From NCBI RefSeq assembly GCF_055900595.2, contig NZ_CM148325.1: a DNA stretch of 64,000 nucleotides; one strand, written 5' to 3'. The notes beneath the pieces are model-generated. The model saw nothing but the letters and a program-made list of their open reading frames with translations, did no database searches and was not told where the DNA came from. Of this stretch, positions 39,119 to 39,621 are shown piece after piece. The stretch's first letter is position 1. Every line of letters begins with the position of its first letter. Position numbers and translations under genes: made by a program.

Positions 39119-39621
39119 ACCACATTTCTGGAAAAGCGTATTGGGTAATGCAATGTTGTATAATATTATTTTATAGTTTCAATGAATTAATTCTCTCTCC
39201 CCCATCATAAAAATCACAAAAAAACAGCATTAAACATATAATTACGGCAAATATATTTTCATTACCTATATTAACTTTTCTCTTTATAAGAGGTTTTTAA
39301 TGATAATGAACCAGTTTATTCTGGGTACTATGCCTCACTCCCGGTATTAGCACTGGATAGCGCTTAACTGGATTCTGTCAGGCTGGGACGGGGCAACAAG
39401 AGCATACAACGACCAGTCCTTAACGCGTGATTATTAATTTCTACAGCGTATCATCATATTATTTAAATCTGCCCAACCTCACCAAATACATTCATAAAAT
39501 GCATAATGATAATAAATCATAAAATACATTCACCGAAGATATTTCTCTTTAAAGAGCGTGACATTTATAATAAGTATTGGTGAGAAAAATCACCCCCATT
39601 AATTTTTATAAGGATATTCCC

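Follow-up and report, generated by a model that had tools for sequence, protein, structure and literature searches.

Why should 503 bp of AT-rich DNA separate folK from the first gene of a fimbrial operon, and what does this spacer contribute to control of the operon? The spacer lies within a 64,000-nucleotide stretch of DNA, hereafter the window, which matches E. coli Z0117EC0005 (NZ_CP098223.1) at 100% identity along 8.6 kb. In the RefSeq annotation of that genome, folK stops at 39118 and the pilin ATG is at 39622, giving a spacer from 39119 to 39621. The original prediction had described a 503-bp stretch bounded by the folK stop and the pilin start, unusually long and very AT-rich, with poly-A/T tracts. 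The RefSeq coordinates agree with these limits, and the length is indeed unusual, the spacer being the longest intergenic gap in the gene tables for the 64 kb (the second, between map and rpsB, is 367 bp). The predicted homopolymer tracts were located as A5 at 39209 and 39585, A7 at 39218, and T5 at 39294 and 39603. With 32.6% GC, compared with 51.6% for the window, the spacer is the lowest-GC stretch of the 64 kb and its sole cluster at or below 38% GC, and only 0.09% of 503-bp windows reach so low a value. Its AT-richness is not uniform, however. Three parts were distinguished, with 26% GC from 39119 to 39299, 49% GC in an island of 131 bp from 39300 to 39430, and 28% GC from 39431 to 39621.

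The spacer had also been placed upstream of a fimbrial operon, and gene content bears this out. In RefSeq annotations of identical and near-identical genomes, the gene order is dksA, gluQ, pcnB, folK, seven fimbrial genes, panB and panC, and the layout at folK-panB is the same in K-12. The seven genes form a chaperone-usher operon at the Yad locus, in the order pilin, chaperone, usher, three minor subunits and adhesin, and their products are 36-60% identical to K-12 YadN, YadV, HtrE, YadM, YadL, YadK and YadC, all significant by BLASTP. The first gene (39622-40191, plus strand; annotated in RefSeq as 'fimbrial protein') encodes a YadN-like pilin of 189 aa, 53% identical to K-12 YadN. Directly 3' of it, on the same strand, an inverted repeat with 92% complementarity and a 2-nt loop forms a hairpin with a 12-bp stem (40203-40228). 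The Yad locus has been equated with the Sta locus of Salmonella (PMC3559732). This allele of it is rare: when 5426 complete E. coli genomes were searched with blastn in near and distant modes, 14 contained the spacer and the other 5412 gave no match, even in distant mode.

To place the spacer among its counterparts, we compared it with those of six other E. coli yad alleles (K-12, CUVET17-1418, EC958, Ec-FL1-1X, O55:H7 and 116333). The folK-pilin spacers of these alleles are 279-370 bp long and have 23-31% GC, so that the spacer examined here exceeds them by ∼130-220 bp. Yad spacers could not be aligned across E. coli allele types save beside the RBS; the K-12/CUVET and EC958/Ec-FL1 pairs were alignable over most of their length, and pairwise and multiple alignments of the present spacer with those of K-12, EC958, O55:H7, EcFL1, CUVET and 116333 revealed similarity only next to the RBS. 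That the other alleles retain AT-rich spacers of 279-370 bp with mutually unalignable sequences shows that the locus keeps a long AT-rich spacer as a property, while the sequence itself is not kept. The K-12 yadN-folK region is among the closest known counterparts. It occupies the same position, flanked by the stop of folK and the leading pilin gene of a seven-gene operon next to panB, and at 26.6% GC it resembles the two flanks of the island (26-28%), but it shares no alignable sequence beyond the neighborhood of the RBS and its operon encodes proteins as diverged as described above. Its length of 369 bp is also close to that of the present spacer without the island, since 503 bp minus 131 bp leaves 372 bp, the usual length of a yad spacer.

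The origin of the extra length became apparent from loci in another genus. When one genome per species was considered, the pilin had a single close relative, the product of pilin2 in Pseudocitrobacter vendiensis (88% identity). In that species, 499 bp of AT-rich spacer separate folK from pilin1 (190 aa) and a further 197 bp separate pilin1 from pilin2, after which come the chaperone and the usher. The two-pilin layout was also found in P. corydidari and in three metagenome/SRA contigs, and in its intact form in none of the 5426 complete E. coli genomes. From position 39599 onward, the operon has 93.6% DNA identity to that of P. vendiensis, compared with ∼80% for the flanking housekeeping genes, and the fimbrial genes have therefore been exchanged horizontally. 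The Pseudocitrobacter locus is the same chromosomal locus, and two of its segments have homologs in the present spacer: the 5' end of pilin1 corresponds to the island, and the inter-pilin spacer to the 140 bp that precede the surviving pilin gene. It differs in having an intact pilin1 (190-191 aa) with a long hairpin behind it, and its ∼500-bp spacer between folK and pilin1 is not detectably related to positions 39119-39282.

The island is the decayed 5' end of a pilin1 gene. From 39283 to ∼39440, on the plus strand, alignment identified an RBS, an ATG, a signal peptide and the first mature codons in disabled form. Local alignment of this segment with the pilin1 region of four loci gave z = 5.8 to 14.9 over shuffles, and 0 of 1000 dinucleotide shuffles attained the observed score; against the spacers of the same four loci, no match was found. 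The relic translates as MIMNQFILGT, followed in a shifted frame by YASLPVLALDSA*LD, where pilin1 reads MSKNKILLGIALSFASLPALALDGGQLD, and a tblastn alignment pairs YASLPVLALDSA*LD with FASLPALALDGGQLD in the signal peptide of pilin1. The signal peptide is of the pilin1 type and not of the pilin2 type (MLKKSAIAAALVMF...). Three lesions disable the gene: a deletion that removes 10 nt from the signal-peptide region and shifts the frame, a stop codon at 39365-39367, where TAA has replaced CAA, and the loss of about three quarters of pilin1. The match is firm to ∼39402 and fades by ∼39440-39480, and the 3' limit is uncertain, with pairwise and multiple alignments disagreeing beyond ∼39402. Position supports the assignment as well, since the relic lies between folK and the chaperone-side pilin, as pilin1 does in loci L011, L014, L015, L016 and L017. 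The extra length of the spacer relative to the 279-370 bp of other yad alleles is due to this relic inside it, which is unannotated, and not to additional regulatory DNA. RefSeq annotates nothing in the spacer in 14 of 14 genomes, but the earlier description of it as non-coding does not apply uniformly, part of it being the remnant of a coding sequence. Likewise, the absence of an ORF was correctly predicted with regard to long ORFs, but the start codon of the relic, read into the frameshift, opens a 16-codon ORF (MIMNQFILGTMPHSRY; 39300-39350, plus strand) behind a Shine-Dalgarno (SD) sequence, AAGAGG.

The alignments also bracket the event that removed the rest of the gene. The pilin1 match ends at ∼3365-3395 in L011 and the inter-pilin match resumes at 3860 in the same locus, which corresponds to 39482, and the deletion junction thus falls between 39441 and 39481 (plus strand). 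About 460-490 bp were lost there, namely the remainder of pilin1 with its trailing hairpin, together with ∼56 bp from the start of the inter-pilin spacer. The relic shows that the ancestral operon had two tandem major-pilin genes, in the layout still intact in Pseudocitrobacter, with folK, an AT-rich spacer of ∼500 bp, pilin1, a spacer of ∼200 bp, pilin2, the chaperone and the usher. In a lineage common to the E. coli studied here and E. albertii, a deletion of ∼0.5 kb and small lesions took most of pilin1, leaving its RBS, ATG and ∼40-45 codons as the GC-richer island (39283 to ∼39440), which the deletion joined to the former inter-pilin spacer (39482-39621). The latter most likely contains the working promoter of the surviving pilin gene and the operon. 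For this E. coli lineage and E. albertii the result is mostly a matter of tidying the annotation, the relic accounting for both the odd length and the GC island. Elsewhere in E. coli, locus L019 has arrived at a single pilin by a different route, and its pilin is a hybrid, with the signal peptide of the pilin2 type and the body of the pilin1 type.

The segment preceding the surviving pilin gene (39482-39621, plus strand) is 66% identical over 140 bp to the pilin1-pilin2 spacer of Pseudocitrobacter (E = 1e-10), and alignment with the inter-pilin spacer of four loci gave z = 8.1 to 13.2. Conserved blocks were detected ahead of the chaperone-side pilin gene in 10 loci from Escherichia, Pseudocitrobacter and Pluralibacter. 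A repeat search identified two direct repeats 38 bp apart on the plus strand (39479-39532), TCACCAAATACATTCA at 39479-39494 and TCATAAAATACATTCA at 39517-39532, whose CATTCA cores are conserved across genera and include the invariant alignment columns A29 T30 C32 A33 and A67 T68 T69. We regard these repeats as candidate transcription-factor sites. A T-rich block, TATTTTTCTTTA, is also conserved in the 10-locus alignment, as is a -10-like TATAAT on the plus strand at 39566-39571 (columns 108-113), 50 nt before the pilin ATG, which reads TATGAT, TATACT or TTTAAT in the other genera. The accompanying -35 is weak, and a consensus scan omits this TATAAT for its poor -35; its conservation and position nevertheless suggest that it is the -10 element of a promoter. 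About 8 nt past it, GGTGA-N6-TCACC (39579-39594, plus strand) forms a 5-bp hairpin or palindrome with conserved arms and a variable loop. In the alignment 94% of the cells pair, with one compensatory change of G-C to A-U, and RNAalifold independently predicts the hairpin at -5.8 kcal/mol, although taken by itself it is weak (z = -1.2). Starting so close to the -10, the hairpin would occupy the 5' end of the predicted mRNA. Stem-loops at the 5' terminus can stabilize E. coli mRNAs. The arms, resting on one compensatory event, could instead be a protein-binding palindrome or operator. The block ends with the SD of the pilin gene, AAGGA at 39610-39614 (plus strand), 7 nt before the ATG, within an ATAAGGA that is invariant in the 10 loci. 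The K-12, EC958 and O55:H7 alleles are without this module of CATTCA repeats, TATAAT and hairpin, whose repeats, -10 and 5' hairpin offer concrete targets for mapping activation in this branch of Yad/Sta fimbriae.

At the other end of the spacer, the segment next to folK (39119-39282, plus strand; ∼26% GC) is specific to this allele, judging from composition and blastn. It is common only to the 14 E. coli genomes and E. albertii, and blastn found no match to it elsewhere in the 5426 E. coli genomes. Aligned with the spacer between folK and pilin1 in four Pseudocitrobacter-type loci, it reached z of only 0.3-1.7, which is not significant, and comparison with the spacers of L019, L020 and L021 returned only one 55-bp match on the reverse strand of L020, at chance level. 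The segment contains the sole sigma-70-like site that a consensus scan detected in the spacer, ATCACA and TATAAT separated by 18 nt (39213-39242, plus strand; 10/12 matches), 57 nt before the ATG of the relic. Its position makes it a candidate for the ancestral promoter of the lost pilin1, and it may still read through the relic. The number of sigma-70-like sites in the spacer was not above shuffle expectation in these scans, and a scan for terminators was at chance level.

The E. albertii yad-type loci (L018, L023 and L024) have a spacer of 505-506 bp that is 95.7% identical to the one examined here, with the same relic and the same lesions. In contrast, the genes downstream have diverged, with identities of 86.5% for the pilin, 83.9% for the chaperone and 81.5% for the usher. 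Divergence from E. albertii at four-fold sites is 18-28% for folK and pcnB but rises to 37-52% for the fimbrial genes, and within folK it is uneven, with 0 differences at 24 four-fold sites in the last third against all three E. albertii loci, compared with 14-31% in the rest of the gene. The lack of four-fold differences in the last third of folK identifies a recombination tract, from about 38960 to 39726, that was recently shared with E. albertii. Strong purifying selection was considered as the reason for the 95.7% identity of the spacer and rejected, the recombination tract explaining it. With a spacer close to that of E. albertii and fimbrial genes far from it, the locus is a recombinational mosaic, in which spacer and relic are common with E. 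albertii and the operon is near that of P. vendiensis. It illustrates how different genera exchange fimbrial alleles as mosaics while the chromosomal site stays the same.

The composition of the spacer and published experiments on other yad alleles make it probable that the operon is silenced by H-NS, as originally predicted. In K-12, the yadN/folK spacer belongs to a set of 78 'promoter islands' that are bound by H-NS and transcriptionally silent (PMC3661553, Table 1). Three ChIP datasets mark yadN as bound by H-NS, and SlyA, which antagonizes H-NS, induces the gene (PMC5797941). Deletion of hns raised the yad promoter more than 100-fold in CFT073, and transcripts of the yad operon increased in the Δhns derivatives of both CFT073 and EC958 (PMC13245861). 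The spacers for which H-NS control has been published resemble the present one in position, length and composition, but they are neither homologous to it nor alignable with it in sequence. The present spacer further differs from the K-12 region in that it contains the relic and does not have an island-like density of promoter sites (1 site compared with 3.2 expected in a simple promoter scan). The two flanks of 26-28% GC amount to ∼370 bp of AT-rich DNA, as in other yad spacers, and would most likely act as a platform for nucleation and spreading of H-NS, silencing the operon until counter-silencing occurs. Taken together, we read the 503 bp with some confidence as the 5' control region of a rare Yad/Sta-type chaperone-usher allele, a composite left by gene loss and probably silenced by H-NS. 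This reading leaves the current understanding of fimbrial regulation unchanged.

Other modes of control have to be weighed against silencing by H-NS. A promoter inverted by a tyrosine recombinase, as in the fim system, had been thought absent for want of a convincing pair of inverted repeats, and our results point the same way. One perfect 9-bp pair (39478-39486 and 39711-39719), the longest found, does enclose the proximal promoter along with the opening 30 codons of the pilin gene, but an inverted repeat of at least 9 bp was present in 78% of 300 dinucleotide shuffles, and one arm lies within the pilin coding sequence. No site-specific recombinase is found among the 61 annotated genes of the 64-kb window, in which rpnC is the only recombination-related gene. 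Each of the 14 E. coli copies gives a single colinear alignment, the three aligned E. albertii copies are likewise colinear, and Yad fimbriae have been described as not phase-variable (PMC13245861). The resemblance to fimS of type 1 fimbriae is therefore limited to an AT-rich promoter region ahead of a major pilin gene, without inverted repeats above chance, a recombinase or orientation variants, and we consider such a switch highly improbable. An epigenetic phase switch of the pap type, in which Dam methylation of paired GATC sites is combined with Lrp and PapI/PapB-like regulators, is even harder to credit. Like the pap operon region, the locus has a long AT-rich fimbrial regulatory spacer, and Lrp-consensus-like matches occur in its AT-rich DNA, but these were not above shuffles (p = 0.24), and the gene tables list no papI/papB-like genes flanking the operon. 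The methylation switch itself is excluded by the absence of GATC from 39119-39621, the nearest sites (38927 and 39034) lying inside folK. A less remote alternative is that the main control is exerted by a specific transcription factor, bound to the CATTCA repeats or the palindrome of the conserved proximal module, with little or no role for H-NS, and that the AT-richness reflects mutational drift. Cross-genus conservation is indeed confined to the last ∼140 bp of the spacer, where it takes the form of discrete blocks, and proxies for H-NS binding and curvature did not exceed chance: the high-affinity H-NS motif TCGATAAATT had one 8/10 match, not above shuffles, AA/TT periodicity peaked at 11 bp with p = 0.13, and A-tract phasing was not enriched over shuffles. 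A study that demonstrated control by H-NS itself proposes an unidentified serum-responsive regulator alongside it, reports induction by serum, and cites earlier work tying yad expression to ArcA and temperature (PMC13245861). Nonetheless, all yad alleles examined retain an AT-rich spacer (23-33% GC) despite complete turnover of its sequence, which argues that composition itself is maintained, and repression by H-NS has been demonstrated for three other alleles (PMC13245861, PMC3661553). We therefore regard a factor-only mechanism as unlikely and retain H-NS silencing as the preferred reading; the two mechanisms are not mutually exclusive. Scans with the consensus sequences of Fur, CRP, IHF, ArcA, Lrp, FNR and H-NS found none above dinucleotide shuffles. 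A Fur-box-like match at 39502 (13/19), tempting given the serum induction of yad, was rejected with p = 0.18.

The island, too, could in principle be something other than the remains of pilin1. Its size of ∼130 bp and its compositional contrast recall small intergenic repeats, and it might be an inserted repeat or mobile element of the REP, ERIC or MITE type. We find this scarcely conceivable, since near and distant blastn place the island at a single site per genome, it has no palindromic fold, and its homology to the 5' end of pilin1 is both specific and syntenic. Co-option of the relic is somewhat easier to imagine, though still improbable; either its 16-codon ORF, which has a strong SD, or RNA of the island would then serve as a translated leader or small RNA that controls the operon. 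The SD, ATG and stop of the ORF are retained in six of six aligned alleles, and the islands of this E. coli and E. albertii share 96.9% identity. The changes within the ORF, however, are 3 nonsynonymous to 1 synonymous, a ratio in which the peptide shows no sign of selection, and the high identity is explained by the recombination tract, as seen in the contrast between the last third of folK (0/24) and divergence of 14-31% at four-fold sites elsewhere in folK. Folding of the island RNA was no better than that of shuffles on either strand (z = +0.18 and +0.19), and the covariance models of Rfam 15, searched on both strands of 38500-40300, gave no match at E-values up to 1. The relic of pilin1 is thus best read as inert. 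A more elaborate form of co-option, to which we give an equally small chance, is that the old pilin1 promoter (39213-39242) transcribes the relic as a leader in which the SD and 16-codon ORF are translated, and that this translation, or the length of an A tract, modulates silencing of the operon by H-NS or Rho. On this reading, what is left of the start of a dead gene would have gained a new role, either as a regulatory leader or as a slipped-strand switch. The tract in question, A7 in the spacer of that promoter here, is A8 in two E. albertii alleles.

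Different parts of the window gave different levels of identity when compared with the yad-type locus of Pseudocitrobacter vendiensis (L011). The fimbrial operon DNA (window 39599-44186 against L011 3978-8564) was 93.6% identical, whereas the adjoining gluQ-pcnB-folK segment (window 36391-39075 against L011 1-2685) reached just 79.8%, and this difference argues that the fimbrial allele has been swapped across genera at one fixed chromosomal site. The final ∼14 codons of folK (window 39075-39118) were also peculiar to this allele, encoding a tail wholly divergent from that of K-12 FolK, which places the start of the replaceable cassette within folK itself.

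Window 38961-39726 is a recombination tract in common with E. albertii. Four-fold differences from E. albertii numbered 0/24 in the last third of folK, and amounted to 14-31% in the remainder of folK and 17-39% in pcnB; past position 39726, within the pilin gene, identity to E. albertii falls to ∼79%. The host lineage is itself unusual. When 5426 complete E. coli genomes were compared over the region from mrcB and hrpB through pcnB (window 30000-38600), just 8 showed at least 99% identity, and the records sampled from the rest of the E. coli ranking for this query were ∼95% identical, a distribution that fits a deep-branching Escherichia lineage bearing the E. coli label.

In one E. coli locus (L019, GCA_009648055.1), positions 2501-3073 encode a single hybrid pilin (protein P0013), with a pilin2-type signal peptide joined to a pilin1-type body, suggesting that two pilins were independently reduced to one in L019 through recombination between the tandem paralogues. 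In an E. albertii locus (L024, SRR7244272), the usher gene at 3901-5567 was called as two ORFs of 481 and 385 amino acids, which probably leaves this strain with an inactive operon.

Upstream of the pilin gene, homopolymer tracts varied in length among alleles at window 39218-39224 and 39390-39393. The first, which sits in the spacer of the sole sigma-70-like site, is A7 in the window and A8 in two E. albertii loci; the second, within the relic of the second pilin gene, is a G4 run here and G5 in all other aligned alleles.

Immediately 3' of the pilin stop lies a hairpin with a 12-bp stem (ACCCGACAGCCC / GGGCTGTTGGGT; window 40203-40228). This is where a stem-loop usually follows the major subunit gene, governing how abundant pilin transcripts are relative to those of the assembly genes. 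Near the pilin start, TAAGGATATTCCCA (window 39609-39622) resembles the RcsAB box (TAAGAATATTCCTA), agreeing at 12 of 14 positions. This sequence overlaps the Shine-Dalgarno sequence, and its conservation may simply be due to the ribosome-binding site. Further upstream, CATAATGATAATAAATCAT (window 39502-39520) agrees with the 19-bp Fur box at 13 of 19 positions, which is of interest because yad is serum-induced in ExPEC (PMC13245861); Fur-box-like matches, however, showed no excess over shuffles (p = 0.18), and the G is substituted in two E. coli alleles.
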